Assembly: GCF_019059575.1 (NCBI RefSeq)
Contig: NW_024881521.1
Location: 601,297 to 665,296 of the forward strand
Direction of reading: 5' to 3'
DNA length: 64,000 nt
From: Amphibalanus amphitrite
Taxonomy: Eukaryota
Below the pieces are notes generated by a model. The model saw only the letters and a list, made by a program, of their open reading frames with translations, did no database searches and was not told the origin of the DNA. Each line of letters starts with the position of its first letter. The stretch's first letter is position 1. A program made the position numbers and the translations under genes. Below are positions 2,929 through 32,904 of the stretch, piece after piece.

Positions 2929-3243
2929 GTTAGTGGTCTACTGATTGTTCGTCGGCTGGTTTGGGGTTGTGTCGGCCGTCACTTTGATTAGAATTGAGAA
3001 TATTTGTTTGATGAATTTGTGAATGCTGACGGACGTTCTGTTGCTGCTAGGAGATATCATATGGAATATGTCTAGGGAAATATTTTGATCGTCCCACTTT
3101 TCAGCGTTGTTTAATCTGAAGTCTTTAATCCGAAGTCTAGCTTGCACGTTTATTTTAGTCAATCTCTATCGTCGCTTACGCCGTTGCGATAGCTCCACCT
3201 AGCCTGACCTGACCTGACCTGACCCTACCGCCTCTCTCCCCAG

Positions 3244-3496
3244 GTTCGACAACCCGGCGTCCACGTCTGACACGGCGACCCGGTGGCTGACCTACAACTA
3301 CCTGTTGGGTCTGAACACGGCCCTACTACTGGCTCCCGAGCCGCTCTGCTGTGACTGGACCATGGGCACCGTGCCGCTGCTGACATCTATCGGTGACCCG
3401 CGCAACCTGGCCACCCTGGCGACCTATGCTGGGCTGGCACTGCTGGTGTGGCGCGCCCTGGCCTCAGAGGATCGTGGATCCGATGTGGTTATCATG
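3244..3496 (+). CDS. TMTC-family exon (RFDNPASTSDTATRWLTYNYLLGLNTALLLAPEPLCCDWTMGTVPLLTSIGDPRNLATLATYAGLALLVWRALASEDRGSDVVIM)
   Basis: ccccag acceptor, atg|gtgaga donor; completes AG+G=Arg from previous exon; FDNPA..DWTMG..DPRNLAT is TMTC-like. Confidence 0.75.
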
Positions 3497-4166
3497 GTGA
3501 GAGCTGGGGATAGTTGTCGGGAAGGGAGAAGGGTGATCATAGCTAAGGTTTGCCCTCGGGTGGGTACTCGGTAGTAGGTGAAATGTGGATTGACTCGGTC
3601 AAAGTTTGTCCGTGTTTGTTGGGTAAGTGCTGTGGGGACGCTATGAAGACACTGAGTGAGTTATTTCAGCGGCGCTAGCGGAAACTTGTCACTGGTGATC
3701 TGATACCGGGGTAGTATGTCAGCGTGACCGACAGTCACTTGGCAGAGTTGTCGGGACCTTCCGCTGCTTTGTCGGTATGGTGACTGGACAGTCCATGCGT
3801 CAGCTAGTGTCATTCCTTCCTCAACATGTCAGGGTTTGCTCCCAGGCGGTCAACGCGGTTAGGCTCCCACGGCTCATCCAGTGTCCCACCAGCCAATAAT
3901 GAAATTGATTGACGATTTCAGCCATGGGAGGATTAGTGATTACTGAATGTTCTACCCTGTGGGAACTAATAATTCCGGGAACTAGCGCATGGTGCTTCTC
4001 AGTTCCCCATACTATTTAAAATTTAGGAGGGAGCCGGGAGACCTACAGACTGGAGCAACTCCCAGTAACGTGGACGGCTGTTGCGACGGTTGTGAACTGT
4101 GAGGTGGGATTCATTTTATCACAGTCTGCGGCACGCACCTAACGGTCTGATCCACCGGAGGAGGGG

Positions 4167-4232
4167 GGAATCGGTCCTGGTTTGGGGAATCGGTCCTGGT
4201 TTGGGGAATCGGTCCTGGTTTGGGGAATCGGT
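4167..4232. repeat. tandem ~20-bp repeat (ggggaatcggtcctggtttg) x4, intronic
   Basis: direct reading of sequence. Confidence 0.9.
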
Positions 4233-4882
4233 CCCGGTCCTGGCCTGACAGCTGGTCTGGTCCGCTAGTGACTGCTGGTGTTGAGGGGAGATAAGACTGC
4301 TGTTGGCAGCTGCCCGGGTGATATCACTGTCACAGACGTGTCAGTGCCTCCCTATCGTCCGATCGTCTGCGGTTGGTGCGGTCAGCTCGGTATTACCGGG
4401 CCGAATATCGCCTCACCAACTGACCGTCTGAGTGGGCTCCAGTTGGACCGAGTACCGTCTCAGATTGGTCCGCGGTGAGGTGGCAGGACGGCTGCGGGAT
4501 TAGTTCCGTACCGGTTATTGATCGGGTGGTGATGGCTGGGGTTCGGTAGTCACTGCTGAGCGAGGCTTGTGAATGATCCGTCCTGCCGTGGACGGCGACG
4601 AAGACGGTGTTATCACCATGGTTATGTGACCCAGATGTACTTGGTCAAAATGTTCCTGCTCGCCTGGCATCGCGTTGCTTTGGTATCGTGTCGTCTAGCG
4701 ACAGTATTTTTTTTAGGCTGATCGAAATTTATAGTAGAGTTTTCCGTTTGGTGGTGATATGTCTTCCTCTCTAGTCTGGTGCTGGCGACTCTCTCCTGGC
4801 TAATAGCCTGTCCCCAGTGTGACTATGACCCCGAGTGTACTGTCTGAGTGTCGCTGTAATTGACTCCGTCCGTCTGTTTCAG

Positions 4883-5031
4883 AGTCTGGCTCTGGTGGCA
4901 CTGCCGTTCCTGCCCGCCTCCAACCTGTTCTTCCCGGTGGGGTTCGTCGTGGCCGAGCGGGTCCTCTACATGCCCTCCATGGGCTTCTGCCTGCTAGTGG
5001 CCGCGGGCTGTCAGCGGCTGGTACAGACCGG
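4883..5031 (+). CDS. TMTC-family exon ([49 protein letters not shown])
   Basis: tttcag acceptor, gg|gtgagt donor; in-frame ORF track 4835..5035; AERVLYMPS motif conserved in TMTC. Confidence 0.7.
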
Positions 5032-5876
5032 GTGAGTACAGCTGACGTTCGGCCCCGCTGCACTGGTTAGCTGGTGGTGACCGGCCGGCCGGGTCCCTGT
5101 GTTTGAACTCGGCGGCGGCCAGCGGCCCTCTGTCCAATTAGCCCCCTGTTTGCCGTTCTCTCTGTCGGGCTGTGTGTCTGTTTGTCTGGGTGTGGGAGGA
5201 TGACAGACGGTCTGTCCGCTTCCTGTTGCCCGGCCGCGCCATTAACCACTCAACCCAGCCCACTACCGATTAAATTCCGCACGACCAAACCCAGCTCTGC
5301 TCTCGTCCATTTGCGGCAGTGCTCGGTCACAGAGCGTCACCGAGCGGTGTAGAGTGCACTCCGTTAATAAGTCACCGCGTCACCGCAGTCGGCGTGTCAC
5401 GTGCGTCGGAAACGACCCCCGCGCGGCCCATTCGTCCCGTCACTGTCCGACCCCCCCCCCCCCCCTCTCTCTACTGTCGCCCCTCAGCTGAACGGGCCGA
5501 TGGGATGATTTGTCGTCGCGCTAGTATCCCGCTGCCGGTAGTAAACTTGGGTATTCGGTGGTATTTTTGGACTCGAGTTGCCAAGAACCCGGAGGTCCAT
5601 CGGGATTCTTCTGGTGCAATGACTGGCCATAAGCGTCTCAAGAGCCCAATTTATCCAATATCGTTGATGGACGAATCCGCGAGATTGACTTACAATTCAG
5701 TATACTCGGATACTGTCAAAGTGGTAGCGCTTTCAGAGCCATTTCATTTAATAATCGTTTAGGACATACCCCATTACGTCTCTGCAGACCTCTTTTTCTT
5801 TGGTTATTTCAGCAGAACTGTTTAACGTGGGTAGTTCCTTGTGCACTGACCCCATTATCATCCATTCTCTCTCCAG

Positions 5877-6098
5877 TCGTCACCGGACGGCTGTCTGGCT
5901 CGGAATGTCCGTTCTGCTGATATCACACGGTCTGAAGACCCACTGGCGTAACTGGGACTGGAGGGACGAGTACTCCATCTTCACAGCCGGCCTGCGCGTC
6001 AACAGGAACAACGCCAAGCTGTATAACAACGTGGGCCACGCGCTGGAGGGCCGGCAGGAGTACGAGCGGGCGCTGGTCTTCTTCCAGCATGCCGTCAG
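5877..6098 (+). CDS. TMTC-family exon, first TPR region (..RHRTAVWLGMSVLLISHGLKTHWRNWDWRDEYSIFTAGLRVNRNNAKLYNNVGHALEGRQEYERALVFFQHAV)
   Basis: ctccag acceptor, cag|gtagga donor; ORF track 5800..6102; phase-consistent. Confidence 0.7.
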
Positions 6099-6963
6099 GT
6101 AGGAATCGTGCCAATGGGGCTGGGTCGCTGCGGATAGGGGATGGGGGGGGGGGTGGACTTGACTGATAGGAGTTGGAAAGTTCACAATGTGATGGATTGG
6201 CTCGTCTTTTATCACGACAGCCTGCCATGAGTGGTTTGAGTCGTAGTCGCTCGCTGAATCGGCCATTTGTCGCTCGCGTTGTGAGTTGCGCCGCTACTGC
6301 GCTCCGCTCTGGCCGTTCGTTTTCATTGAGTCGGAGCGGCGGGCGCGAATATTGCCGAATGAATGGGCGGCCGACAGTGACAAACGGAAACCGATGTGCC
6401 GAATCCCGGCTCGTTGTGATCCAATGCAACACGACGTCGGCGCCGCTGGACCGAAACCATGAATAATCAATGGGTGGCCACATGCATATGCATCATGGTT
6501 TGGCCCATTTCGGCTCGGCGCTGCGACCACTGCGCTGAGTAATGACGGTTGCCACCTCTGAAAACGGCCGCTCATTCACTGGCAGCACCGGGTGTCTGTC
6601 ATTGGTCGCCGCCAGTAATCGGGCACTGTAGTCAGGCATACTGGCCGCTGGTATGTCGGGGAGGGGAATAAGTGCATCGTCTGAATTAGTTATACACACA
6701 TGGGCGAATAGTTGGTTTACAAAGCGTCTCTCGGGCCCCTGTTCGACTGATTCCCGGTTGTGCAGTCTATTCGATGCGGTTGATTGTATTGAATTGTTAT
6801 TTGTGTGAACGCAGACCTATTATTTGAGAACTGTTGCTTTTCTCGATATCATAGTCCCTTGGATTGCCATCGTCGGCTGGTACTGTCTGTAATTGTACTG
6901 CATTTGTACCAGACGATACGGAGACCTATAATTTGTAACGCCGCTCTCGTCCTTCCGTTACAG

Positions 6964-7057
6964 AGTGCAGGAGGACGATATCGGAGCGCATATTAACGTG
7001 GGCCGGACCTACACCAGTCTGCATATGTACGACAAGGCCGAACAGGCGTATCGCACG
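6964..7057 (+). CDS. TMTC-family exon (RVQEDDIGAHINVGRTYTSLHMYDKAEQAYRT), TPR
   Basis: gttacag acceptor, acg|gtaagt donor; phase-consistent. Confidence 0.65.
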
Positions 7058-8358
7058 GTAAGTTCGATCAACTAAGACCGACCGTGGAAGGAGGCGGTGG
7101 GCTGTTCATAGTTTGTCACCATGCTGATTGCTGGGTCTGGGCGGGGTGGACGTGGGGGGTGGGGTCACTCAACCCAGTACTCTTGGGCTCTGGGCGTTAA
7201 ACTCACAATGATGGGCTGTGAGCTAGATGTGGACAGAACGTTGGTGCGAGTCTAAAAGTGGCGCCGGCGTCCCAGATTTCCGAGCTCAGCCTGCGATCCG
7301 CGTTGAAACTTTGGGCGTATCTGAGACAGATCCCGGAGCCGATTAAAGCGACTGCGCCGGCTGCAGCGGCCCGGGTCCCGTATCTCGGCAGCTGGGTCTA
7401 GGAACTGAGCCTCCCCGCCTCTCACCCGGGGCAGACTCGTGGCCGGTCCAAAAGCAGTGGAGCGAATCTCTCCCCCCCCCCCCCCCCATTCCTGACTGAA
7501 GTTTGGTCCAACCGGCCATCCTCAGATGTCCACAGTACATTGACGCCCGCATTGAGATATCGTCAGAAAACTGCCTCGGGTGGCTGACTGCGCAGGGATT
7601 CCTGAGACTCGGACCCGCGAGTTGCCCCTTCCCCACGGCGGTACCCCCACCTCCCCTCCCGCCCCGTTCCTCGGGCGGTGGCCCTGGAGACAGACAGCCG
7701 CGGGTGGTGATTTCAAAGTTGAATGGACGACCACCGATGCCGAGTTTACAGTGTCTTGCTTGGCTGTATTTGCAATGTCAGCTGGGCTCATCACACTATA
7801 TTTGTAACTGGCGCTGGGCATTCATTGCCGGTGGAAGGCCCTACGTAGTTTGCTACAACGGGTCTCTAATAAACGGGTACTTTGCTCAATGACGGATACG
7901 GCGTTAGTGCTTTCCCACTTAAGTAAATCAAAATTAGATATATGTAGCAGCAAAATTATTTGTGGCGTTGATCAGGGTCGTATCGTTGACAATGTCCTCA
8001 TAGTTATATCATAGGTTATTCCGCCATCTCTCGTCCCGGGTAACGGTATAGTAGGCACGCCGAGCTACTCTTCGCCGCGGTTTGTGGTCGTACCGTGCTA
8101 ACTCTGAGCTACAACACGGACGTAAAGTTCTGTAGGTGATGGAACGGCAAGCCGGCGCGGCTGAGGGATGGCTCCAATTTGGTCCGGATTGGTGGCGCCG
8201 GACTGAAGGCTGATCCATCACTGGACGCGCGGCGGTCGGAGCGTGTGCTGCCAATGTGTGTTCAGTGACCGGAAGTTTGTTTTTAGTTTTAGTGTGATTA
8301 GTATTCCTATCTGGTGTTCCCTGCAACAGTGTGTGACTTGCCCCTCTCCTTTTCACAG

Positions 8359-8649
8359 GCGAAGTCGCTGCTGCCTCGCGCCCGGCCCGGCCAAGTGTAC
8401 CAGGCACGTATCGCGCCCAACCACCTGAACGTGTTTCTGAACCTGGCGAACCTCCTGGCGCGCAACCACAGCCGCCTGGAGGAGGCGGACGCTCTCTACC
8501 GACAGGCGATCGGCATGAGGGCCGACTACACTCAGGCCTACATCAACAGGGGTGATGTGCTCATCAAGCTGAACCGTACACAGGAGGCGCGCCGGGTCTA
8601 TGAGACGGCGCTCACATACGATAGCCACAACCCGGACATCTACTATAAC
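8359..8649 (+). CDS. TMTC-family exon, TPRs (AKSLLPRARPGQVYQARIAPNHLNVFLNLANLLARNHSRLEEADALYRQAIGMRADYTQAYINRGDVLIKLNRTQEARRVYETALTYDSHNPDIYYN)
   Basis: tttcacag acceptor, aac|gtgagt donor; 97 codons in frame (ORF 8314..8673). Confidence 0.75.
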
Positions 8650-9705
8650 GTGAGTCAACGGGTCTGTCGGTGATACATTGATCAATGGGTGTTGCTGATT
8701 TTCCCGGCCTCTTCTTTTTCATCAGTCATTTTCCGTGAGTCAGTCCGTTGTTCATTTAGTCGGGTAGTTATTTCAGCCAACCGGTGAGCTAGCCTGCCAG
8801 TCATTCACCGTGTCATTTACCTACCCATTCCCGGCGGCCCAACCCCACCCCTCCATATTCTGGCTGTTGGAGCCTGTTGTGGCTGGGGTTATGTAGACAG
8901 TATACACACTGTCGTTGCGGCGTTCGGTCAGTTGCCGGGCGGTGTCCGGTGGTAGTATTTCCTTTACCACCCTGTTGTGTGCAGTGTGGGCCGATGGCCT
9001 GTCGGCCCGCGATACGGCGTCGGGCGCCGTGTTACCATCCGGGCCGCCATGGCGACTGGGACGGGGTGTGGGGGCCGCCGACCATCCGATTCCCGAGACA
9101 AGGATGTGAGATGGGGTGGCCGCCTGGCGCACACGGCGTGGGCTTATCTTCACTGACGGGCTGTGTGCCAGACGCTATGTTGTGTAGCTCGCAACAGAAC
9201 AAAACGTGATTGATTAGTAAACGTAATGATAACATCCTCCTCTCCGTCTTCGCTTCTTCCTGGGCTCATTTCGCTGTGAAACTACCGCAGTATTTGGTTG
9301 TCTAACACACCATCTCCTCTCCCTTCCTCAGCTGGGCGTGGTGTGTCTGGAGCAGGGCCTCCAGGCCCAGGGACTGGAGTTGTATGCTCTAACACCCCTC
9401 CCTCCCCCTTCTCTCCTCTCTGTTACAGCTGGGCGTGGTGTGTCTGGAGCAGGGCCTCCAGGCCCAGGAACTGGAGTTGCGTACTCTAACACCCCTCCCC
9501 CTCTCTCCTCTGTTACAGCTGGGCGTGGTGTGTCTGGAGCAGGGCCTCCAGGCCGAGGAACTGGAGTTGTATGCTCTAACACCCCTCCCTCCCCCTTCTC
9601 TCCTCTCTGTTACAGCTGGGCGTGGTGTGTCTGGAGCAGGGCCTCCAGGCCCAGGAACTGGAGTTGCGTACTCTAACACCCCTCCCCCGCTCTCCTCTAT
9701 TGCAG

Positions 9706-9987
9706 CTGGGCGTGGTGTGTCTGGAGCAGGGCCTCCAGGCCGAGGCGCAGGCCTACCTGGACAGAGCGCTCGAGCACGACCCCGACCACCAGCAGGCGCT
9801 GCTCAACTCGGCGGTGATTATCCAGGAGGAGGGGCCCCCGGAGCGGCGGCCGCTCGCCTACCAGCGGCTCCACCGGCTCATCGCGCTCCGACCGTCGGCC
9901 GTCGGACTCGACAGGGTCTACTTCAACCTGGGCATGCTGGCCATGGACGACCACGACCTGGTGCCCGCCGAGGCCTGGCTCAAAAAG
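9706..9987 (+). CDS. TMTC-family exon, TPRs (LGVVCLEQGLQAEAQAYLDRALEHDPDHQQALLNSAVIIQEEGPPERRPLAYQRLHRLIALRPSAVGLDRVYFNLGMLAMDDHDLVPAEAWLKK)
   Basis: ttgcag acceptor at 9700-9705, aag|gtgagt donor; this is the last of five tandem acceptor+exon-start copies, and which copy is used in vivo cannot be told from sequence. Confidence 0.65.
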
Positions 9988-10217
9988 GTGAGTAATGCGA
10001 GCCAAGGACTAGAGTGACTGTTCAAACTGTGACTGAGCTCATTTCGGCACCCCGCGTCCATCGTGTAAGTGGTTTAGCGGCGCGGGCTGGTCGGCCAAGC
10101 GGGCAGTTCGAAGTTGAGGTAGCCTTAGTGTTGATGCGTGCCTAGTATGCTCAGTTTCCTCTGTAAAGCCGCGCTGTGTGTTCTCAGTAGGCTGATTCCC
10201 GCCGGTCCCCTCTCCAG

Positions 10218-10412
10218 GCGGTGGAGGTGCGTCCCGAGTTCCGTTCGGCGCTGTTTAACCTGGCGCTGCTGCTGAGTGACGCCGGCCGGCCGCTGGAGGC
10301 CGTGCCCTTCCTCACCCGGCTGGTACAACATCACCCGGACCACGTCAAGGCGCTCATCCTGCTCGGAGACATCTACATCAACAACATCGAGGACCTGGAC
10401 GAGGCGCAAAAG
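10218..10412 (+). CDS. TMTC-family exon (AVEVRPEFRSALFNLALLLSDAGRPLEAVPFLTRLVQHHPDHVKALILLGDIYINNIEDLDEAQK)
   Basis: ctccag acceptor, aag|gtgggc donor; 65 codons. Confidence 0.7.
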
Positions 10413-10692
10413 GTGGGCTGCGTGGGTACGGCAAACCGGTAGGAGGCGTTCTCAGGCTGTCTATGGGTCCCGAATCGGCAGCTTGGTGGCGTGATCAAAA
10501 GTAATGCTGTATGGCTTAATGTATGGCTTAATGAGTGATCAACTATTGCTTGCGTTGCACTGTTTCCGTGGTCGGTCAGTTTTGAACGCCTGAGTGGTTA
10601 GCGGCCGGCGGCGGTGGCCGGTGGATGGCGCTCATTTCCCCCGCGCTCTATCGTTCATTCTCTTACCTGCTCCCTCGCTCTGTCGCCCGCAG

Positions 10693-10917
10693 TGTTACGA
10701 GCAGATTCTGCGCGTGGATCCGGATCACGTGCAGGGATTGCACAACCTCTGCGTAGTCCACGTGAAGCGGGACGACCTGGAGCGCGCCCAGCAGTGTCTG
10801 GAGCGGGCAGCTCGGCTGGCGCCCGACGAAGACTACATACAGCGACATCTACAGATTGTCCGAGCGCGCCGCCAGGCGGCCAAATCGGCAACTAGGCGGC
10901 CCGAGCCGGGCGCATAA
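10693..10917 (+). CDS. TMTC-family terminal coding exon (CYEQILRVDPDHVQGLHNLCVVHVKRDDLERAQQCLERAARLAPDEDYIQRHLQIVRARRQAAKSATRRPEPGA*)
   Basis: cccgcag acceptor; TAA stop at 10915-10917; matches ORF 10594..10917. Confidence 0.75.
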   Translation, partial: CYEQILRVDPDHVQGLHNLCVVHVKRDDLERAQQCLERAARLAPDEDYIQRHLQIVRARRQAAKSATRRPEPGA

Positions 10918-12159
10918 CAGCCGACCGTGGGTGTTGGCTGAACTCTTGGCGCTGTGATAACCCGCGACGCTCCCCGCCCGGGCCTGCGGTACTTTTCGCG
11001 TGTCTGAGACCGCGCGGGCCAGTGGTCGCCCCGCCGGCTCGGAGCGTCGTCCTGCTTTAATCTGTGTAAATCCGCCGGGCCCTGGGGGCATCGGCGGACG
11101 GTCATACGACATGGTATTGTCAGGAACTGTCCTCTGTGAACTCTGTGTCCTAATGACGAGCTGTAATGAGAGCGTTATCACCGGGCTATTTTGATGCTGT
11201 TGTGCTCAATATTTTATGTAAGCTTGCGAGATGATTGTTATTTCTGTGCGAACTGCGATACGTGTTGTGGTAGCACGGTTGACGTGTCGACTGCGGGTGC
11301 TTGTGACAACTGTTGTTCGGTATGGATTGGCACGGTGGTTTTTGTTGTGCACTGTAACAGGGTACATCAGATCAGGAGCTGGTCCCTGAGGGTGACTCCT
11401 CGGCTGGGCGCCGGACCCTGGAGGTCCCGCAGATCGGGCACCGAGGCGCGGCGGGCCCCGTCGGAGCCGATATTGACTGTGATAAAATACATACAGTATA
11501 CATTCCGCTTAATGTGTGGTTCGGGTGTGTGCCCCAGAAAATCCACGATTCTTCCAGTTCATCACATAAGATAAGGAACAACGTTGTATCTTCGCGAACA
11601 ATCAAAGCACAATCAACACACCGTGCACAGACACTCGATGCCGTGAAAGCTCAGGTACAAGCGAGGACGAAGCCGCTAGAGCGCCCGGACGAGCTATGGC
11701 TTTTCCGTCCGAAAGTCCGAATCGGGTGCGTTGATCACGGACGCAGCCGGGGCAACATGTGATGAGTGAGTGTGGTCCATATGGTGGACAAATCCAGGCA
11801 CAAGCGAAAACCCCGGGGATAGTCGGGTGGCAGTTATGAAAATGACATCGAATGCAACGTAATTGTTCAGTATGAGGCGCTACTTTGACAAGCCTGTCAT
11901 CGGTACATCAGAACCACCTCGGTATCAAATCTCACACAATAATCTCATGACGTTGGGCTTAGACAGAAGGTCTGAAGCACCTCTTCGCCAACTGATTCCG
12001 AACTTCAAGCACCGTCCGCGCTCCCAGCACAAAGTCCCGGGTCGAACACTCTCCACCTCGCGGCGCTACCCGCGTTACCTTCCACAGCTTACCAGTTTGT
12101 ACTGCAGGCTCCTCTCACACTCTGAGCCGCGGGGCGCCCGTGGCACGGACCGCGGGCCG

Positions 12160-12267
12160 TCACTGCTGCTGCCGAGCCTGTTCGCGCTGCTCGCGGGCCT
12201 CCTGCAGCTGCAGCGCGCGCTCATACTGCTCCTGCCACTGCTCTGGCTCCACCTCGTCACCCCAGAT
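12160..12267 (-). CDS. NSMCE3: NSMCE3 / MAGE-homology-domain protein, last coding exon (IWGDEVEPEQWQEQYERALQLQEAREQREQARQQQ*)
   Basis: rc translation; ccccacag acceptor; TGA stop at 12160-12162 (minus strand). Confidence 0.7.
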   Translation of the reverse strand: MWGDEVEPEQWQEQYERALQLQEAREQREQARQQQ

Positions 12268-12535
12268 CTGTGGGGAGGGGGGGGGGGAGACGGGACGATC
12301 AACGGCGCTCGCAGGGCAACTAGAATACATTTAGTGATATCGGTGATAATATACACACCCTCTTCGGGACTCTGGAGTTTCTCACTCAACTCCTCCCTCT
12401 AAGCGTCCCGCTTACGTAACTTCCCTTGTGTAGAGTTCCTAAATCAACCCACCACTCGTTAGCTTACCATTCATACTTCCATTACTTTCGAATGCTTCCC
12501 CAATTTCCGTTCACTCAGCTCGAAGAGTGTCTCAC

Positions 12536-12667
12536 CGTACAGACGAACTTGAGCAGGTCGACGGCGTCGACACCCACAGAAGCGGCGTCTCCCCAGAAGA
12601 ACCGTAGCACCGTGACACCCTTCACCACCTCCTCCTCTTTACGCAGGTAGCCGGCGCGACAAAACTC
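12536..12667 (-). CDS. NSMCE3: NSMCE3/MAGE-like exon (EFCRAGYLRKEEEVVKGVTVLRFFWGDAASVGVDAVDLLKFVCT)
   Basis: matches MAGE homology domain C-terminus (..YLEYRQVP..YEFLWGPRA..KMKVLEFVAK pattern); gacag acceptor, acg|gtgaga donor. Confidence 0.75.
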
Positions 12668-13031
12668 CTGTCGACGTCAGAAGCCAGTTAGTCAAATCAT
12701 AGCCGGCGCGACAGAAATCCTGTCGACGTTAGACAAACTACACATTATAGCTGTCGCGACAAAACTCCTGCCAGCGTCAAACACGAAAGATCATAGCCGG
12801 CGTGACAGAACTCCAGTAACACCTCAGTGAGGCGTTCAGCTGCCGTGACAACAGTCATATCAGTCACTTATCAGTCATCAGTCACACCAGTCATTACTCG
12901 TCAGCACGGTCCGCCACCCCTGGTAAAAACCTCGGTCATACGTTCCTGACTAGCCTAATGCACTTCTCACCGGCCTCATAATTAATGGTAGTGTGAAGAG
13001 GCTGACTAGCCTCACAGCCCCATTGACTTAC

Positions 13032-13120
13032 CTCGGTCACCAGTTTCCTCACGTTGCCGAAACACTCGTGCTTATGGTCCTTGTGGACGCCCAGCTTTGA
13101 CAGGAACCTCCACAGCGTAT
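13032..13120 (-). CDS. NSMCE3: NSMCE3/MAGE-like exon (D-TLWRFLSKLGVHKDHKHECFGNVRKLVTE)
   Basis: aligns with human NSMCE3 ..[29 protein letters not shown]; gggtag acceptor, gag|gtaagt donor. Confidence 0.75.
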
Positions 13121-13544
13121 CTACCCGGCGGAATAGGGACGGGGAATCGCTCCCGTTAGTCACACAAATACAGATCCACGGCGGCGCAGCACCAGCGCTC
13201 GGAGCTCAGACTTAAACTAATGAGATTACTGACGGAACCGGTCGTCATGTCGCTCTACCACAGCTGCGGGGAGCGCATCGGTTTCTGTGGCTCATCACCG
13301 CTCCGAACATGTCGGATTCAAAACCGCAGGGGTTCTGTCTATACCCGTTGCCACAGATCCTGATACCTGGAGACGCTAAGTTACACAGGGCCACCATACA
13401 GGACAATGATACTCTTTATTCTTTGATCATTGATTCTATTGTGATACGCAATTCTAACAGCAAAAATAACCCGCATCTGACAGATAACAATGCCACGTAC
13501 CGCGTACGTCCGTCCGCCGCAGTCGCTCTGATTTATCTACGTAC

Positions 13545-13722
13545 CCTCATCCACGCCGGCGTCCCCACTCATGAAGATGAGCGCCAGTATGGCGACGAGC
13601 AGGCCGTGCTTCTGAAGCTCGGACTCTGCGAGCAGTGGCGGCGCATTTTCCACCACGGGGAGCTGGTTAACTAGCAGCAGGTCCCGCTTGTTGGGCAACA
13701 CCTCCAGCGACATACCAAACAC
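13545..13722 (-). CDS. NSMCE3: NSMCE3/MAGE-like exon (VFGMSLEVLPNKRDLLLVNQLPVVENAPPLLAESELQKHGLLVAILALIFMSGDAGVDE)
   Basis: aligns with ..[42 protein letters not shown] of NSMCE3; ccccag acceptor, g|gtacgt donor. Confidence 0.75.
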
Positions 13723-13904
13723 CTGGGGATGACGATGTTAGAGTTAGCACGGCGGGGAGGGAGGGGTAGCTCAGCTGGATAAACCAGCGAAGGGTCCAGT
13801 GATGTCGGATAAGACTTACATTTAGTTAGGGAGAACGAACACTGGTAGCAACGGGAAGCGTACCAACATGTGCCTACAGTGAGAAAGCGAAGTGGGGAGG
13901 GCCG

Positions 13905-13945
13905 AAGGGAGGAGAGAGAGAGAGAGAGAGAGAAAAAGGGAGGGG

Positions 13946-14006
<61 letters not shown>

Positions 14007-14032
14007 GGGGGGAGAGAGAGAGAGAGAGAAAG
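13905..14032. repeat. (GA)n/(CT)n microsatellite, ~125 bp, in NSMCE3-like intron 1
   Basis: direct reading. Confidence 0.95.
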
Positions 14033-14141
14033 GGATGACACACAGGCATAAATCCCAATCTATTACGCCTCATCCGCTCCCCCCAGTTAGCTCAGTTCCC
14101 TACCCGGTCGGCCCAGAGAGGACACACGCCGCCCCACTCAC

Positions 14142-14489
14142 GTCTCTCAGTTTGACGTCGGCCGCCTGCAGCACCTGGTTCACGTAGCCGCCGTGCTGCG
14201 GCTCCAGCGCCAGGCGGCGCACCTTCTCTCGGCGCAGCGGCTCGCCGCGGCCGTGCGCCGCCAGCACGTAGCGCACCACGCGGGCGGCCAGCCGCTCCTC
14301 CTCGACCGGAGACAGGCGCCGCTGAGAGCGCCGCTGGGTCTGCGACTGCGACTGCGAGAGTGACTGCGACAGCGGCCCGTCCTGGCGGCGGAGAGGGAGT
14401 CGCACAGACGGGTTACAGGCGGTGAACGGGTTATCAGGCGGGGAACGGGAGTGACACATAGGTGTTATATGTGGGGGAACGGAAATCAC
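14142..14489 (-). CDS. NSMCE3: NSMCE3/MAGE-like first coding exon (..RLSPVEEERLAARVVRYVLAAHGRGEPLRREKVRRLALEPQHGGYVNQVLQAADVKLRD); start codon uncertain (ATG at 14489 or downstream ATG)
   Basis: ORF 14100..14489 read to gac|gtgagtgg donor; low-complexity SQ-rich N-terminus followed by MAGE winged-helix start. Confidence 0.55.
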
Positions 14490-14683
14490 ACAAAAGCGTT
14501 ACATAGGTATGGGGAACGAGAAGCGTACATAAGCGTCACAGACGGGAAACGGATTTGAACATAGGGGTTATTGACAGGGAGCGGGATCATTTACCTTCAC
14601 AGGTTATACACGGGAAACGATAGCCGCACTCTTGGGTCACCCAGTGCCTGGGCCATTGGGACCGAGGCATCGTCCATAATATA

Positions 14684-16040
14684 CAGGGTGTCCCATAAGT
14701 TCGTTCTCACATTATGTTTGCATGTGAAACAGAGTACATTGCGTTTTGGTATATTTATGACCCCTCAATGTGCTCCCCATTTAATAGGCAAACACATGAA
14801 TGCATGCTGCGGCATGCCAACCGGCATGTTTGGCTGCATAGCAGGCTTAAAGTTAACCCAGACTGACTTGACATGCGCCGTGAGCTCCTCGAGGCTGGAA
14901 CAGCGCTACGCTTCGACGAGCCTCAACTTGAGCATAACCAACAAATTTTTATGAAATTTTGATCCGATGAGGTGCCTGGCATGTGATCTTGCCACAAACG
15001 CCTGTCACAGTCTGCTTGCACCGCTTTTAAGCTTTGCTTGACCTGTGCACTGATGCACTGTCTTGCCTGAAGATGGGCCTACGACCTCCCGGATGCCATT
15101 TTCTCCTCTATAAATGTGTTCATACTCGCGGTTCGAGTTCAGCTTGAGGGCTGAAATTCCTCCTGGATGTTCTTGGAAAAGCACTCTGCTTCCCAAAACT
15201 GTTTCTGGGTTGCCACTTGTAACTTGATCAACTCCAGAACGCCTATAACCCCACAACACAGTGACCCTGGCCTCTTGCATAGGAACATAACGGGACGAAA
15301 TGAAGGCCTCCTCCTTCGCCCTTATGGGGTTGTTTTCGGGTTTGGACGGGTGTTTCATCTCGAACGTGGACTAGTTAGTCCAGATGACCTGGCTGATGTC
15401 ATCAGCCCCCTAGTTTTGTTTAGCCTCAGGCATAACGAAACTCATGTTTGGCCATTTTAAGACGTTTTTGACTGTTTTGTGCCCTCCGGTAAGCAAAGCT
15501 TAAGTCACCTTGAGTTATGTACCCCGAAAGAACACTCTTAGACAGCTGGTAATCCATCCTGAAAAGTATGTTTACCAACTTTCTAACCCTTTGACCTTTT
15601 TGATGGCCACTTTGGCGCCACACAGTTTTGGCCACTTGGCTCATTCCTGAGGGCTGGCTAGAAAGAGGATAAACTTGCAGTGATTGACTCCCAACAAATC
15701 ATCGGCGTCACTTGCTGACTGTGCGTCCAGTTAGCGATGGATATTGGCTACAGACTGGTAGGCCTCAATCACCCTCAATCGTCGCGAATGGTCACGTGCT
15801 GACTAAATACTGAGACGTACCCGTATCGGAGACCTCTATGTTGCGGCGTTAGCCGTGTCTGTAGGAAGCGGGCTCTCTAGCAAAAACTATTTTGTCTACA
15901 GAAATTAGCTACTGTGGAGCATATTTCTACCACCCATGGCAACCATGTAAGCTCAGTTACGAACCAATTTCAGCGTGCCTTTAAGCAAGAAAGCCTAAAA
16001 ACGTAAAATTTAGGTGAGAACGAACTTATGGGACACCCTG
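14684..16040. mobile_element. non-autonomous Tc1/mariner-like DNA transposon (~1.36 kb), 27-bp TIR CAGGGTGTCCCATAAGTTCGTTCTCAC, TA TSD
   Basis: perfect 27-bp inverted termini at 14684-14710 and 16014-16040, each abutted by TA (14682-83, 16041-42); no intact transposase ORF. Confidence 0.8.
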
Positions 16041-17579
16041 TAGATAACATAGACCGTTACAGACGGGATAGGGACGGACAAGACCGTCAGTATTAGACTG
16101 TCGCACCAGCTGTCGTCAGCGGATAATCAGTTGGATGCCCGGTGAGTCAGTATTGGGGACGACCGTCACTCACGTCATCATCCTGCGTGGCTCTGGTCCC
16201 ATTCTGAGACTGTCTCGGTCTTCCTCGCGGCATTCTTAGAAGCCTGCAAACAAAACAGGTGAGATGAAATCACACGCATGGGTTGTCACCCATTTCCAAT
16301 AAAAATGAACTCAATTATACTGGGTGATTCATTGGCCAATAAGGAAAGAAGTTTACAGCTAAAGCTACGCAACATAAGTTAAAAAAACACACACACATGT
16401 GCATGGACACTGGACAGTAGAGTCGCAACATTAATTGACAAGGGTGAGTTCGTCGTGCAGCACCATCGAAAAAAAAAATCGTTTTCATCTGAGAATCATA
16501 CCGTGAATAAAAGATGCATGCTAAAATAAATGCAAAGCACACTTCTTAAAAATGGCAAACATTCATCCACACACACACCAATGAGCCCACTTACAGACAC
16601 ACACAACCGTCCCTCGCAAAGATAAAGCAAAGTCCGTACCGAATAAAATCGTGTGGCATGGCATACAGGACTAACTAGGCAGTTCACGGATCCAAAGTGC
16701 AGAGCGATCAAGCTGCGAGGTGCGAACCATATTGCCCAGGAAGCCAAACTCGGTTGCATCTCCCCACGCCGAGGGGCAGAGCACTCAACGTGAACGTGAA
16801 CAGCGTCCCACCAAAGCGTCTGGAGTGTAATGTAGAAATTATTATTAGACCAAAAGATGGAAAGGCTTTCGCCGTGATTCCCCGATGTAACAGACTACCG
16901 GTCCCTTATGACGACCCTGCACATGAAATGACTGAAGCCACTGTGCTCAAAAGTTATCTGCATCGCAGCAGCTCTGCAGCCACGGGCGTCACTTTATTGA
17001 TGAAATTTTAGGATAGGGCTCTAATGGTTAACTTTAGGATACAAAAGCCATTCTCACCATGCAGCACCCTGGGGATAAGGTTAAAATTGTGAAATATTTG
17101 GTACGGCTCGGGTCCTACCAAGCCTATACCATAGAGCACCCATGTCTGCAGCCATGTGAAGGTGATGCCCATAAGTGAAATCAAGCAGCTGGAGGTGCAG
17201 GAAGCCCGTGAGGAATGCGATCATAAACTTACCCACGTGGTATATTCCAAGCATTGGTACCAGTGGTCCCTGACTGAGACTCACCAGATGGGCCAGCAGG
17301 ATGGAGTTGCTGGTTATGAGATGAGCTACGCTTAGGAGGCATCTGGTGGGTGTGTATACTATAAACAGTAGGTGTTGGCAGCTTATGGTGGTAATAGTAT
17401 GACTATAGGTAAGACAGCTAACAATAGACCTAGCCAATGCCACACTCAACTGACAGTACCTTTTCTGTATTTGACTATATTTAATCCAATTCCAACAGTA
17501 GGTATTGTTGACCAGGGGTCACCAATAGAAAACCAAACAGCAAACTCCAGAATCTGGCAGTGCACATAATACATATTAC

Positions 17580-18100
17580 TGAGAGCTGTTCACGGGTCCT
17601 CTGTGCGGTCGGATCGTACACAGCCTCCAAACTCCGCCCACCGCGTCCCTACGTCATCCCTCCGTCACCGCACACAGCGACCGCTGTGGTCGGTCGGAAC
17701 ACGGAGGGGTGTTCATGGGAACTGCAAACTGCTGAGGGAGGTGTGTGCGGTGTGTGCAGCAGGCGTGGGGGTAGGGGATGGGTAGGCGGTTCTGTTCTGA
17801 CGTCACGGCTGCGTGCGGTGACAGTCCGCTGTGGCCAGTCCTGACCGGCCACAGCGGTCGCTGTGTGCGGTGACGGAAAGCTGATGCAGGGACGCAGTGG
17901 GCGGAGCTTGGAGGCTGTGTACGGTCCGATCGCACACAGGGCCCGTGAACAGCCCTCGGGACCGGCCACAGGGGACCGTCCACCGAACGCAGCCGTGACG
18001 TCAGAACCGCCTACCCATCCCTTACCCCCACGCCTGCTGCACACACCGCACACACCGCCCTCAGCAGTTTGCGGTGCCCGTGAACACCCCCTGGTCCAAT
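17580..18100. repeat. complex inverted-repeat element: segments X(17580-17690) Y(17715-17815) X'(17845-17955) Y'(17985-18090), where X' and Y' are reverse complements of X and Y
   Basis: direct comparison of the four segments; the long 'ORFs' here on both strands are artefacts of the palindromic GC-rich repeat. Confidence 0.75.
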
Positions 18101-19519
18101 CAATAAATTTTTGAATGACCGCCTTCCCACTGAGCTAGACTGGAAAAATCTATACACTACGCCGGACGCCTAAGGGACCCTCAAGCGCCGAAATTCGGCG
18201 CAAGCGGTTTTGCGTAGAAATTTTAGCACAATTCGTGCCGAAAGTTGAAGCTTATTCGTGTCATATTGTGTCTACCTTTTTACCATTCACGCACCTACAC
18301 ATGCTTATCTATGCCACCAACGTTAAAAAGTTAGATAACAAATAACAAAGAGACTGGATAAAAAGCATTGAACAAGAATGCTTTCCCGACAAGAATGTTT
18401 TTCTGTCGCTATAGTCACGGCTCAAAGTACGGCTCTAGCGAGATTAAGCGGTAGGTTTTGCACTTTTACATTTCCGGTTATATCTCAGAAACTAAACGAT
18501 CTACCATGAAGCCATTTTACACGATCATGGCCGGCTTGTTACCCAACAAGTCGATCGCATCTTCAACACTTAAAAGCTTAGAACGACGAAGATATAGTCT
18601 GAAGTACACTAAATTTTCTAGGTGCAAAACCTACCGTTAAACCCGCGAGACCTGTACCTACTTCCAAAATGAAATGAGAGATGACATGAGCCTGCGATAT
18701 GGATATGGCACTTATAAAACCATGACATTTTCGCGAGCAGCCCGTAGGGCGGTATTGTCTCATTCATTCCAGGACATAAAAGACATAAAGCTCGGGAATA
18801 TCACTCGACATAGCAACAGCACTGGATAATAGACAATCATCCAGAGCACTGAACATTGATCATCAAACTGAACTGCATGCAAAACTTCTGAATGTATCTT
18901 CAGACGACTCAGCGAACAAGCTTCCTCCTAATGTAATTGCACCCCACATTACAGGGCATGGACAGGAACCTTAGGTCTAGTAGTTTGACAAGTCTTCTTG
19001 GGCCCTGTGAAACCCCACTTATAGACTGTTTACTATGGCTGCAGACACAACTTCAGCAATTAGGAGCCTGAAGATCAACCAGCCCAGTCTGCATTTTAGC
19101 TCCAATCATCTGACAGCTGTCACAAATGCAAACCCAGGGGGCTTGGGCAGGGGCAGACCCAGTCACCGATCAGTACTTGACCTGGGCTAATGATTTGAAA
19201 GTAGAGTGCAGCAATTGAAGTGAGCTAAGGTTGGTCTAAGGTAAGTTCTTGCCATCTTGCACAGAAATTTCTAATATCATCTGTTAGTGGCTAGTGCCAA
19301 AATTTCTTTGTCCACCCATGTGCCAGAATTTTTGTGCAAAATTACACCAGAAGCTGCACCAAAATTTCAGCGCATTCTGTCCATCACTCAAAACATGTCA
19401 AAGGCAACATGGATCATCTGGTCACTAAAATGGCTAATGCAACTTCTGCAGAGATGTTCAAGCCATGCTTGACAAATGCTAGGCTGACTCCTTAACCTTG
19501 GGCAGCCTGAGTGATGAGC

Positions 19520-19720
19520 AAGAGGGTTGTTCACGGGCACCGCAAACTGCTGAGTGCAGTGGCCGGTGTGTGCAGCAGGCGTGGGGTTTAGGGGATGGGT
19601 AGGTGGCTATGACATCACAGTGTGGTGAACGATTCCATGTGGCCAGTCCCGATCGACCACAGCGGTTGCTGTGTGTGGTGACGGAAGGCTGACGTAGGGA
19701 TGCGGTGGGTGGAGCTTAGT
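19520..19720. repeat. second copy (Y-X' arrangement) of the 17.6-18.1 kb inverted-repeat family
   Basis: gttcacgggcaccgcaaactgctgag...ggagcttag shares about 85% identity with 17715-17910. Confidence 0.7.
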
Positions 19721-20879
19721 TCTTAGCTGCTACTTCTTGGCTCCTCATTGGTCGAATTCAACTTATTCAGCCGGTGGTCTATTCGTTAGACCAATGACTA
19801 ATGAGACGAGGCCAAGAAGCGCCAGCAATAATTTCCTTGTATGGGGAACGCTGACAGCATGCTGATATAAAAACAGCGACCAAACAGAGCTAAGACTGAC
19901 TGAACAAATCTAATCCAACTACAAGGTTATACTGATACTACCAGTTCATCACTCAATAACTACACTCAAGGCCACTTCACTTTAAATTTATGATTATTTC
20001 TATACTGCTTTCTAATCCATTGGCCTTGCCTGAGATTTTTTGCTCCTCTTTTTAGCTCAATGGCAGCTCAATGGCTCATAGTCACCGTGAATGGCTCACT
20101 TGAGTTGTTGTTGTTGTTGTTGGAATAGGACGCCGGCTCACTTGAGCTCCTACCTAAAAGTTTCATTTAACGTGCTAAAGACGCTCATGGCGCAGGGCGT
20201 ATTATGTTCGCTCACAGGATTTGCAGTTATATTGCATTCGCTAAGTATCTTCTAAGCCAATTGTATGCGAGAAATGTTACAATTCAAACAAACTGCTAGG
20301 CAACAGGTTGCTACTACTTTATCTTCTGAACAGCGACGCTTACCACATACCCGTCAATACCGTTGGCCTTGGTTCAACTCGTTCAACTTGGGTTCAACGG
20401 CTAAAGCGAGAGAAGGAATTCGGAATTTTTCTTATTTTTTTTTTAAATCAGTGTGTACATTTCAATTTCAATTGCTTGAGTTACCTCAGGAAGTCAGGAC
20501 TTCTAAGCTTTTTGAACTGCCAGCCCAAGCCGGCCCGGGGATAAAGCACTATTTGAATATTTTGCTGGATATTTTTCTTCCAAGCTCAAATTGTCTTAAG
20601 TGTTTACCTAAAAGTGTGTTTGTGTGTGTTTGTTCATGTAGACCAAGATGGGTTATGAGTGAACATTGCTTTTTTACAGTACCTACCTACCTATTGGGCG
20701 ATGAGCCTTGCTGGATGTTTTACCTTAACTATAACAGTTGCAAGTGGGTTGCGCTGATGTGGGCTGTGGCCTTGTCATTGACAATTACCTTACCTACCTT
20801 ACCTTCAAGGTGTTCGGGTTAAAGAAGGCCACTTGGCCTGAGGATCCCGCTCTCATCAAGCTCGTGAGGATGTACATAC

Positions 20880-21720
20880 TGGACTCTTAGGGTAAAGGGA
20901 TGTCATACATCTTGTTCTTCCAGAGTTTGTCCAGTCGCGCCTTGAATTGGTTCACCGACGTCGCTGACACCACAGAGTCTGGAAGTGTGTTCCAGTCGTT
21001 GACTATTCTGATACTAAAGGAGTTTCTGCTCACAAGTTTTCTAGCATGTGGTTTGCCCAGCTTCCATCTGTGTCCTCTTGTCCGGTCAGACTCGTTCAAT
21101 GTCAGAAACTTCTCCGGTGTCAGCGCCATGCCTCCGTGCAACAGCTGGTACGCGGTGATCATATCTCTTCGGCGGCGGCGGCAGAACAGTGAAGGCATTC
21201 CGAGGCTATGTAGTCTTTCTCGATATGGCAAGTGTCTCACGGACGAGACCATTCGGGTCGCCCGGCGCTGAACTCGTTCCAGCCTCTTCTGGCTGCCTAT
21301 AGGTACTGAATGGTCCCCATATCGTGTTACCGTATTCCAACAACGGCCTGACCATAGCATTAAAAAGCAATGGTAGCGTGGACTCGTTGATGTTCGCAAA
21401 AGAGCGTCTCAGTACAGCCAGGGTTTGACGAGCTTTTGACACGGCCGCTGATGCCTGTTTCTTGAAGTTCAGGTCGCTGTCGATCACGATCCCAAGGTCC
21501 TTTTCCTCGTCGCTCGCTTCAATCGGGGTACCGTGCAGCGTGTAGGTCAGGTTTGGATGGTGATGGCCAGTGTGCATTACCTTGCATTTCGCGACATTGA
21601 GCGGAAGCATCCATTTCCGAGACCACTCACCAAGCGCATCGATATCGGCTTGCAGGCCCACGTCATCCCGGTTGCCCACCATCCGACGGTAAATCTTCGT
21701 GTCGTCGGCGAAGAGCTTGC
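20880..21720 (-). mobile_element. 5'-truncated, frameshifted CR1/L2-like non-LTR retrotransposon fragment (RT C-terminal thumb plus tail)
   Basis: rc ORFs 21206..21682 and 20887..21399 encode ..FADDTKIY..GLQADIDALGEWSRKWMLPLNVAKCKVMH.. and ..LERVQRRATRMV..LPYRERL..RTRGH..RIVNDWNTLP, typical CR1/L2-clade RT 3' region. Confidence 0.85.
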
Positions 21721-22187
21721 ATCAAATTTGCATGCTGTTAAATGATTTTAAGCCTTTACCTACCTAACCTACCTACTTGAAGTTGCATATAACAGCAGCG
21801 AGAGGTACACAGACTATAATGCACAACATTGTATTACCTGACGACTGTCAGTGAGGTGGGGCTATGCCTAATTTATGATGTGATGCCTCTGCAGTTTTGC
21901 TGCTGTGTCAGGAAGCTGTTGCATATCTTATTTGGAGCTGTGCTAGCCTTACCTCAGTGCAGTGCTTATCGAGGTTATGGTGGCTGGTGCAACATGGCCA
22001 AAGATAATGGTCATTGGGACACAGCATGAGCACACTGCAGTCTGCTGTCCCCTCAGGAAGCTATTGGTCTTTTAGCACTCTTAGATATCTTCCAAGCTTT
22101 GGGGACCAAATTCAAGGCCACATTGAGGTTGGTTTTATTTTCTTAGTTTTCCTAGATGTATTCTCTGAGTAGAGGCATGTGATGCAT

Positions 22188-23534
22188 ACAGCGTGTCCCA
22201 GAGTTGACCGAACGCTGTTAATCAGTGCATAAGTTAAGGGAAAAATAATTGCAGTTTTTTTTTCTTTTTATCGTCCGATATAGCCAGTGAGGGTAGCTTC
22301 GAAATGGCACATGCAATAGACACGCTAGCTACAACATTAGCCGACAATTGTAGCTAAATGCCAGACGATGATGGCTTCAGTCGTTTTACGGGTCTCCCGA
22401 AACTGGTTGTAAGACGGTTTTCATTGACCTCTTGCCGGTGGATACTATAAATATTTTCAATTAACTTTGCATCCAAACTGTTCTCAGGCCATGAGGCATT
22501 TTCTCTCAAAACCAAAAACTCTGCCTACACCACTGTTGCGCTGTTTTTTGACATCTGAAGTGGAGAGCCTCCATGCCTGAACATGACGTGACCTTTGGCT
22601 TCCAACAGATTTGGTTTCCAAAACAAACCCGTTTATGGCCATTCAGTTCACGACAACCAGTTTTTGTAATGCGTGAATATTACCGCAGTAGCAATATGTG
22701 TTAACGGTCGTCTTTGGGGCATCGTATCAAGCTGAATGAGTGCACCGTGGCTCAAAATGCCTCACACTTTGATTTTCGACGAGTTCCTGGCCGTCTCCGC
22801 TGTTGGGGCGTTGTCACCATCTGACGTCCACACACGACTTTTTATGTCGCTTCAAAGGGCAGAATACCTTCGTAGGACCACAAAGTGTGTTTCCATTCAC
22901 TTTTTTGTTGCATATGTTATGATTTATGGCTGCTTTGTAGTGATTTGCGCTGTCTTTCCGTTAGTTTTGGCATATTTTTCAGATGAGGGGCCCCAAATTC
23001 CAAAATTTTGTCGAAGATAGTGGTCAAAAGTAGACTGATGTTTCGTAGCTAACCCTGATCTGTCGTTTAGCTTGTTTTTGGGTAGATGGGTGACGTTTGT
23101 TGTCCATGACATGGCAACCACCCGCTTGACGACTGGTGCATGCTCTTTTTTGGTCGCGGCCCAGGCTTGACGATCAGCTTATCTCTTGCTCTCTTTGGCT
23201 TCGCTCGCTGATATAACTGCAGTTTGCTCACCCCTGCCTGCTTGCAAATGAGCTACTGGAGCTCTGCAGCAAGAACCATGCCGAAAGTCCGTTTACGAAC
23301 TTCAGAATTATTCACCATGAATTTTTTTTTGGTTGCTGAGGCTGAAAACGAAAAAGGACTAGTCTTTGCTGACTCTGGATAATAACTGACTCGAGTCGTG
23401 ACCGGTCACCAAAAACACACAGTCTCCAAGCTCGATAGCTAAGGCATGTCTTATAAAAGTATATCTAATTAGAATCGAGCGCAATCGTACTTTTAGCCAG
23501 GAAATGAATGTTCGCTCAATTCTGGGACACCCTG
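22188..23534. mobile_element. non-autonomous Tc1/mariner-like element copy A (~1.35 kb), TIR CAG(C/G)GTGTCCCAGA(G/A)TT.., TA-flanked
   Basis: termini cagcgtgtcccagagttgacc / caattctgggacaccctg with TA at 22186-87 and 23535-36. Confidence 0.8.
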
Positions 23535-23548
23535 TACATTGTCATCTA

Positions 23549-32789: not shown

Positions 32790-32904
32790 CTGTGGTGGAG
32801 AGCGTGAATATCGTCAGACAGGGGAGTAACACGGGCCAACCAGCGGCGCCAGTATTTTTGTAGAACGATCGCCTGTGGTGGAGAGGGAACATCGTCAGAC
32901 AATT

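Follow-up and report, generated by a model that had tools for sequence, protein, structure and literature searches.

A degenerate tandem array across a 3' splice junction of the barnacle NSMCE3 gene

The question raised by this locus is why the end of an intron should hold several copies of the beginning of the exon that follows it. The intron belongs to an NSMCE3-like gene within a 64-kb stretch of eukaryotic DNA from the barnacle Amphibalanus amphitrite (hereafter the window; G+C content 52.6%), and an earlier note on this DNA had described degenerate direct copies of the acceptor and exon start on its intron side. In this study, the copies, the gene that carries them and comparable repeats elsewhere in the window were analyzed; the observation is confirmed, and the reading that accompanied it is supported with small corrections.

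The identity of the gene was established from the minus-strand reading frames at about 12.5-14.5 kb. When concatenated, these match the Pfam MAGE family (PF01454, E = 2.7e-23), and the same translation is 99% identical to the A. amphitrite protein 'Non-structural maintenance of chromosomes element 3' (268 aa, P0001), so that the proposed assignment to NSMCE3 holds. The exons were placed by tblastn of this annotated protein, which gave six coding exons on the minus strand (Table 1). By this alignment the exon that follows the array (12667-12536), previously numbered exon 4, proves to be coding exon 5; it comprises 132 nt or 44 codons (EFCRAGYL...KFVCT), with both ends in phase 0. The array itself occupies the final ~150 nt of the intron that precedes it.

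Table 1. Coordinates of the NSMCE3 gene model, the array units and the other junction-spanning repeats in the window
Feature	Position	Strand	Basis or remarks
NSMCE3 coding exon 1	16233-16174	-	tblastn P0001
NSMCE3 coding exon 2	14381 to about 14135	-	tblastn P0001
NSMCE3 coding exon 3	13722 to about 13545	-	tblastn P0001
NSMCE3 coding exon 4	13032..13121	-	tblastn P0001; upstream splice partner, ..DTLWRFLSKLGVHKDHKHECFGNVRKLVTE
NSMCE3 intron between coding exons 4 and 5	12668..13031	-	364 nt, GTAAGT...GACAG
NSMCE3 coding exon 5	12536..12667	-	tblastn P0001, cross-junction translation
NSMCE3 coding exon 6	12267 onward	-	tblastn P0001
Unit 1, functional copy	12648..12699	-	head 12648-12667, 32-nt tail 12668-12699, AG 12669-12668
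Unit 2, intronic pseudo-acceptor	12700..12747	-	head 12700-12719 (18/20), AG kept 12721-12720
Unit 3, intronic pseudo-acceptor	12748..12793	-	head 12748-12767 (18/20), AG kept 12769-12768
Unit 4, outermost copy	12794..12829	-	head 12794-12813 (18/20), AG changed to TG 12815-12814
TMTC3-like acceptor array	9329-9745	+	five copies, 90 or 97 nt
IQ-motif gene (P0125) array, exon start 29952	29898-30131	-	three copies, 82 and 85 nt
IQ-motif gene (P0125) array, exon start 32789	32748-32901	-	two copies, 83 nt
RAD54-like acceptor array	55171-55429	+	four copies, 68-77 nt, intron tail + 37-nt exon head
RAD54 donor-side mirror duplicate	54836-54919	+	last 18 nt of exon + GTGAGT

The annotated protein, aligned by tblastn, and spliced transcript contigs of related barnacles both bear out the start of exon 5, proposed as gacag|GAGTTTTGTCGCGCCGGCTAC. 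NSMCE3 transcripts from two such species (L003, an ENA assembly, and L004, Logan run ERR6349740; P0002 and P0003) are intronless contigs, and both are spliced at the same point as A. amphitrite exon 5, reading ...GTGACGGAG|GAGTTCAAG... and ...CTGACACAG|GACTTTGTG..., with the junction letters ..GAG|GAGTT.. and ..CAG|GACTT... The annotated A. amphitrite protein and the proteins of the two orthologous contigs cross the exon 4/5 junction without insertion (..VTE|EF.. and ..LTQ|DF..). Since the junction is conserved and the proteins carry no insertion, the annotated acceptor is the conserved and productive one, and the mature NSMCE3 mRNA would thus contain one copy of the repeat, judging from the annotated protein and the two contigs. 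When the exon 5 peptide was used to look for genomic pieces of this junction in other barnacle species, the homologue search gave no match.

Other introns of the gene, and the DNA next to the array, contain further features. A 1357-bp insertion in intron 1 (14684-16040), missing from a second assembly of the species (L001; GCA_009805615.1, contig VIIS01000581.1), has perfect 27-bp terminal inverted repeats (CAGGGTGTCCCATAAGTTCGTTCTCAC) flanked on both sides by TA, and looks like a polymorphic Tc1/mariner-type DNA transposon. The intron between coding exons 2 and 3 holds a (GA)60 microsatellite (13912-14029), and a short repeat of 7-9 nt of the TGACTGA type, a branch-point-like motif, lies directly upstream of the array in gene orientation (12852-12894).

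The array consists of four head-to-tail units that start at 12648, 12700, 12748 and 12794 (plus-strand numbering). Each unit is 46-52 bp in length and is composed of a 20-nt exon head and an intron tail of 26-32 nt. In gene orientation, the units read ...GGTGTTACTG|GAGTTCTGTCACGCCGGCTA (unit 4), TGATCTTTCGTGTTTGACGCTGGCAG|GAGTTTTGTCGCGACAGCTA (unit 3), TAATGTGTAGTTTGTCTAACGTCGACAG|GATTTCTGTCGCGCCGGCTA (unit 2) and TGATTTGACTAACTGGCTTCTGACGTCGACAG|GAGTTTTGTCGCGCCGGCTA (unit 1), the last of these being followed by CCTGCGTAAAG..., the remainder of exon 5. The similarity to exon 5 ends exactly 20 nt inside the exon, and the rest of the exon adjoins only unit 1, the most downstream copy. The starts given for the copies in the earlier note (about 12649, 12703, 12749 and 12794, spaced about 45 bp) and the length of the duplicated exon part (~24 nt) had to be corrected. 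Likewise, the AG was said to be duplicated together with the exon start; two of the three intronic copies retain it (as CT on the plus strand at 12720-12721 and 12768-12769), but the farthest copy has TG (12814-12815). This outermost unit, the tail of which is scarcely recognisable, is the oldest copy. The locus therefore contains a junction-spanning duplication, in which the unit holds intron and exon sequence together with the splice junction.

That these are genuine copies follows from several searches. Tandem Repeats Finder reported a repeat at 12648-12770 (period 52, 2.5 copies, 78% matches, score 146) and another at 12696-12814 (period 48, 2.5 copies, 72%, score 126). A repeat-family search gave four 43-nt copies at 12641, 12693, 12741 and 12787, with a spacing of 52, 48 and 46 and identities to the reference copy of 72, 100, 74 and 63%, respectively. 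In the MAFFT alignment all three intronic heads match the true exon head at 18 of 20 positions. When the proximal 15-16 intron bases are included, the agreement with the real copy is 31/35, 28/35 and 27/36 (89, 80 and 75%), the matches in the proximal tail alone falling with distance from the exon (13/15, 10/15 and 9/16). The distal spacer can scarcely be aligned unless indels are allowed, and whole units including it are 58-69% identical to the real copy. The earlier note had set 70% identity as the line below which the copies should be regarded as unrelated; the core lies above this line, whereas entire units fall below it.

The low identity of whole units (50-69%) is the one point in favour of the view that the copies reflect chance similarity, low complexity or an assembly artefact, a view that is scarcely credible given the following results. 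A 34-nt core (20 exon and 14 intron bases) has two further matches in the real intron (31/34 and 28/34); among 20,000 shuffles of the intron, a single match of 22/34 or better occurred in 19 and a pair of such matches in none, and the sequence is not of low complexity. A blastn-short search of the whole 64-kb window returned local copies alone (E = 7e-7, 6e-4 and 3e-3), with none outside 12640-12850. Together, the shuffle test and the window-wide search exclude chance and a dispersed repeat family. Furthermore, the array is base-for-base identical in the second assembly and is shared by the two haplotypes compared; since this independent assembly differs from the window elsewhere (the 1357-bp transposon, a VNTR and 3.5% divergence further along), the array is genuine and not an artefact of assembly. 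It is, accordingly, a minisatellite in the ordinary sense of at least two head-to-tail units of 10-100 bp beyond chance expectation. An origin from a transposon or introner would leave dispersed copies and terminal inverted repeats or a target-site duplication; within the 64-kb window no dispersed copy of the array was found.

The anatomy of the array also bears on the possibility that the intron itself arose when an exonic AG|GT proto-splice site was duplicated in tandem, as in the Rogers model. This mechanism is documented elsewhere (PMC3265369, PMC2891723), and copies of the downstream exon start do lie inside the intron. However, the model predicts a single unit, with a 5' intron end resembling the downstream exon start and a 3' end resembling the upstream exon end. 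The intron begins with GTAAGTCAATGG, which has no similarity to the exon head, and a comparison of the exon 4 tail with the donor side of the intron was not significant (z = 0.6). In addition, the repeats are several, include intron tail and cover only the last ~150 of the 364 nt, and the exon head starts with GAG rather than GT. Such a birth of the intron is already largely refuted by this anatomy, and we regard a relic of this kind as very improbable indeed.

The consequences of using the copies for splicing were evaluated from the reading frame. Splicing to the AG of unit 2 would add 52 nt to the exon and lead to a premature stop after 26 codons, and splicing to that of unit 3 would add 100 nt, with a stop after nine codons; no AG lies between the unit 2 AG and the real acceptor. 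The same outcome applies to every further AG within 200 nt of the intron end, the real acceptor apart (10/10); these AGs would lengthen the exon by 52-199 nt (the extensions listed being 52, 70, 83, 97, 100, 143, 155, 172 and 199 nt) and reach a stop within 1-27 codons. Because every upstream AG shifts the frame or encounters a stop, the intronic copies cannot yield a productive isoform, and the array is devoid of productive alternative 3' splice sites. As regards other roles in splicing, a recursive splice site would read AG|GTRAGT; the copies read CAG|GAGTTT, CAG|GATTTC and CTG|GAGTTC, and the intron is just 364 nt long. Use of the copies as mini-exons was rejected, as no consistent GT follows the heads and the lengths are not multiples of three.

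Branch-point candidates were read off the sequence. Unit 1 has a putative CTAAC at 12691-12687, the A of which is separated from the exon by a normal branch distance of ~21 nt, and a second branch-like motif, CTGAC, at 12680-12676. In the AG-keeping copies, units 2 and 3, the corresponding motifs (CTAAC or TTGAC; CTAAC in unit 2) lie just ~10 nt before the AG. An AG located so near to the branch point is used poorly in 3' splice-site selection. The motifs of units 2 and 3 are thus probably too close for efficient use, and this short spacing may be a reason why the downstream site wins.

The explanation that we consider probable is that the array is a small, old and degenerate minisatellite, produced by serial tandem duplication over the NSMCE3 3' splice junction, the extra copies having become part of the intron. 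This account builds on the repeat and its register to the junction, the frame consequences, the conservation of the junction in related transcripts and the recurrence at other junctions described below. A segment of ~50 bp, comprising ~30 nt of intron tail with the branch region and AG and the first 20 nt of the exon, would have been tandem-duplicated repeatedly, possibly through slippage, unequal exchange or end-joining. Every unit would bring its own branch-point region and AG, and the most downstream unit would remain a self-sufficient acceptor; since the duplicated unit includes the branch region, the last copy is a complete acceptor and the duplication can be tolerated. The mRNA would be unaltered, the upstream units merely lengthening the intron. 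These units would then be decaying pseudo-acceptors, with no exon body behind them, a premature stop if used and, in the farthest copy, a lost AG. Such copies are presumably little used and close to neutral.

The suggestion that the same phenomenon occurs at other places in this DNA proved to be correct: matching anatomy was found at four other acceptors and one donor. A same-strand self-BLAST of the window (offset 20-320 nt, at least 32 bits) gave 12 clusters; control offsets gave 0-3 hits at 30 bits and none of at least 34 bits. Six clusters are readily accounted for [a (GA)n microsatellite, two palindrome arms of foldback-like type, one CGACTC low-complexity block and two parts of an in-frame 11-aa coding repeat], and the other six are located on exon-intron junctions, so that all of the local direct repeats left after filtering (6/6) straddle junctions. 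The exon starts of the arrays outside NSMCE3 were taken from homologue tblastn alignments and from P0125, the barnacle's own IQ-motif protein of 601 aa, the gene for which (37172-29303, minus strand) contains two exons with acceptor arrays. A chimeric query built from the exon starts of these four arrays retrieved TMTC3 and RAD54 homologues of other taxa and none of the barnacle's own proteins.

Five of the six junction clusters are acceptor arrays, in which intron tail and exon head are repeated and the last copy is continuous with the exon; in the TMTC3, IQ-gene and RAD54 arrays this copy runs into a homology-supported exon. The junction lies near mid-unit in all five, with the tail making up ~35-62% of the unit, and at TMTC3 and the IQ gene the units are separated by short filler-like stretches. 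The five sites of the TMTC3 array are near-identical and complete: all contain a branch motif (CTAAC), a pyrimidine tract and CAG, followed by 40 nt of exon head with 98-100% identity. The sixth cluster is a donor-side duplicate in the RAD54-like gene, the copy of which lies 59 nt downstream and is 24/25 identical, with a possible third partial copy. Roughly one in eight or nine acceptors in the window carries such an array.

Several observations stand beside these results. The next-upstream acceptor of the TMTC3 array would lengthen the exon by exactly 90 nt, in frame and stop-free. One RAD54-like intron is duplicated at both ends, by an acceptor array and a donor duplicate; in a junction-by-junction test, the latter ruled out a phenomenon confined to acceptors. 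Reverse transcription of a lariat-3'-exon intermediate, which would place the 5' ends of the units at the branch point, was rejected as a source of the duplications: the unit boundaries precede the branch-like motifs by ~8-15 nt, and one of the duplications is on the donor side. Elsewhere in the window, a near-perfect palindrome of ~2.7 kb (43046-45739) with arms 97-99% complementary, the outer ~600 nt of which on each side consist of 14-16-nt subrepeat arrays (CAAATCTTCGTCCG), resembles a foldback element. On the minus strand at 60373-61039, in-frame 33-nt repeats encode ~20 copies of an 11-residue unit (PSPRQEPHFSQ-like) within an Ala/Pro/Ser-rich open frame of >1158 aa (59802-63275), the sole Pfam signal of which is a weak TFIIA-like match under the family cut-off.

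The placement of the repeats would be explained directly if junctions were mutational hotspots, that is, if breaks or polymerase stalling occurred where transcription and splicing or nucleosome edges coincide and were repaired with short tandem duplications and filler; the NSMCE3 array would then be one old product. This would account for the location of all six filtered repeats on junctions against the few control hits (with uniform placement this has a probability of about 1e-4, a rough estimate that assumes a generous 80-100 junctions in 64 kb), for the central position of the junction in the units of the five acceptor arrays and for the filler-like stretches at TMTC3 and the IQ gene. However, the sample is a single 64-kb window, and the excess of acceptors over donors (5:1) is not significant (binomial p about 0.2). 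Survivorship can mimic a hotspot, since neutral duplicates soon become unrecognisable at high diversity, whereas exon-anchored ones diverge one-sidedly and are homogenised; the requirement that the tail hold a branch point is likewise a selective filter that would centre the junction. A hotspot is therefore an unlikely explanation, although an origin of this kind is compatible with the minisatellite account.

The behaviour of the arrays over time can be followed at two of the other loci. In the TMTC3 array, five exon-head copies are present in the window but two in the second assembly, and on the basis of this difference it is an active VNTR. Across this array the identity between the two assemblies changes abruptly, from 96.5% on one side (1852-9468) to 99.6-99.97% on the other (9613-26231), as would be expected if the haplotype switches, or a recombination boundary lies, at the VNTR. 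The IQ-gene array at 29898-30131 also occurs in a 628-bp TARA Oceans metagenome contig (L002) of a related barnacle, in which the exon is 93% identical at the protein level; this contig contains two copies with the same exon-side boundary. Head copies differ at 0-3 bases within a genome and at 4-7 between genomes, and since the heads are closer within than between genomes they appear to have been homogenised by gene conversion, re-duplication at the same point being less likely; the array thus shows concerted evolution.

Divergence within units is uneven. In NSMCE3, the exon-derived 20 nt are 90% identical in all three intronic copies, and the spacers are 66-69% identical; for all arrays pooled, the exon-derived parts are 92% identical versus 74% for the intron-derived parts (Fisher p = 5e-15). 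One-sided divergence, with the exon constrained, leads to an expectation of ~85%, which is below the observed identity of the heads; some extra force, gene conversion or constraint, must therefore act on the intronic heads. The excess fits a combination of conversion restricted to the head, which is free of indels, and pyrimidine tracts that are prone to them.

A rival proposal is that the copies are functional decoys, maintained as NMD-coupled alternative 3' sites for dosage control through regulated unproductive splicing or for tuning of the acceptor. The better conservation of the heads than of the spacers, the AG and branch-like motif retained in two intronic copies, the premature stops in all alternative products and the persistence of a similar array with homogenised copies between species are in line with this proposal. 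The array RNA also folds somewhat better than shuffled sequences, although the effect is weak (z = -2.5) and comes largely from CpG palindromes in the units (GTCGCGAC, GACGTC and GTCGAC); with an E cut-off of 1, neither strand of 12300-13300 matched any Rfam family. On the other hand, the conservation of the heads is largely expected from one-sided divergence and gene conversion, the outermost copy has no AG and the spacers vary in length and sequence. The variation of the TMTC3 array from two to five copies between haplotypes is the behaviour of a neutral VNTR, and the host genes (TMTC3, NSMCE3, the IQ-motif gene twice and RAD54) share no obvious need for such control. A decoy function is thus distinctly unlikely.

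Returning to serial duplication followed by decay, pure neutrality alone leaves the junction placement of all six local duplications unaccounted for. Survivorship is an economical answer: unconstrained copies fade rapidly, whereas exon-anchored, converted copies persist. Neutral diversity in this lineage is very high, with an intron pi of about 6.5% in the related barnacle Balanus glandula. It is rather unlikely, but would be of broader consequence, that a barnacle process focused on splice junctions, acting through a hotspot or through selection and gene conversion, makes or keeps arrays of near-identical 3' splice sites in many genes; such arrays would outlast species splits and could serve as decoy or competing acceptors, with NSMCE3 as an old member. 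Taken alone, the NSMCE3 array is probably a harmless relic, a junction duplication masked by splicing that leaves a longer intron. The context, six junction-spanning duplications in 64 kb, outweighs this single case: the arrays offer a series of natural experiments on spliceosomal choice between identical 3' splice sites, and they may be a sign that, in a species of very high diversity, exon edges are preferred places for duplications to arise or persist.

Comparable structures have been described in other systems. In human genes that lie in segmental duplications, exon-intron boundaries may carry internal tandem repeats (De Grassi & Ciccarelli, 2009; PMC2812944). As in these, the unit of the barnacle arrays spans the splice junction and repeats the splice signals, the copy number varies between alleles or paralogues (in the barnacle, at TMTC3) and the extra units are spliced out of the mRNA. 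The human cases often involve new introns or alternative transcripts that retain the repeat, whereas here an existing intron is simply lengthened, and the extra NSMCE3 units all lie upstream of the acceptor in use, with none giving an in-frame product. Work by Zhuo et al. is reportedly related to such boundary repeats, and intron creation by intragenic tandem duplication is said to be the subject of a paper by Gao & Lynch (2009) in PNAS.

The neutralization of intragenic tandem duplications by splicing is an accepted process (Hellsten et al., 2011, PMC3265369; Lehmann et al., 2010, PMC2891723; reviewed in PMC3443670). The protein is unchanged and the redundant copy is removed by the spliceosome, as in Rogers-type duplications; those, however, duplicate an exonic AGGT and create a new intron, whereas a functional 3' splice site was already part of the NSMCE3 segment, and the position of the intron is not new. 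Like minisatellites (VNTRs), the arrays of the window are composed of head-to-tail units (46-97 bp), differ in copy number between haplotypes (TMTC3), are homogenised within genomes (the IQ gene compared with L002) and have more diverged edge units. Unlike in ordinary VNTRs, one end of the array is pinned in a coding exon, and the unit under selection for the protein anchors the sequence of the others. The serial AGs before one exon resemble tandem alternative acceptors such as NAGNAG and other nearby 3' sites; the AGs of a NAGNAG site, however, are spaced by 3 nt and preserve the frame, whereas the NSMCE3 sites are 46-52 nt apart and out of frame or stop-containing, each with its own branch-like motif. 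The barnacle genome papers searched make no mention of junction-spanning arrays. Junction-spanning duplication is a known kind of event, with an unusually high frequency in this part of the genome, and to the junction-spanning tandem repeats already described the NSMCE3 array adds a case.
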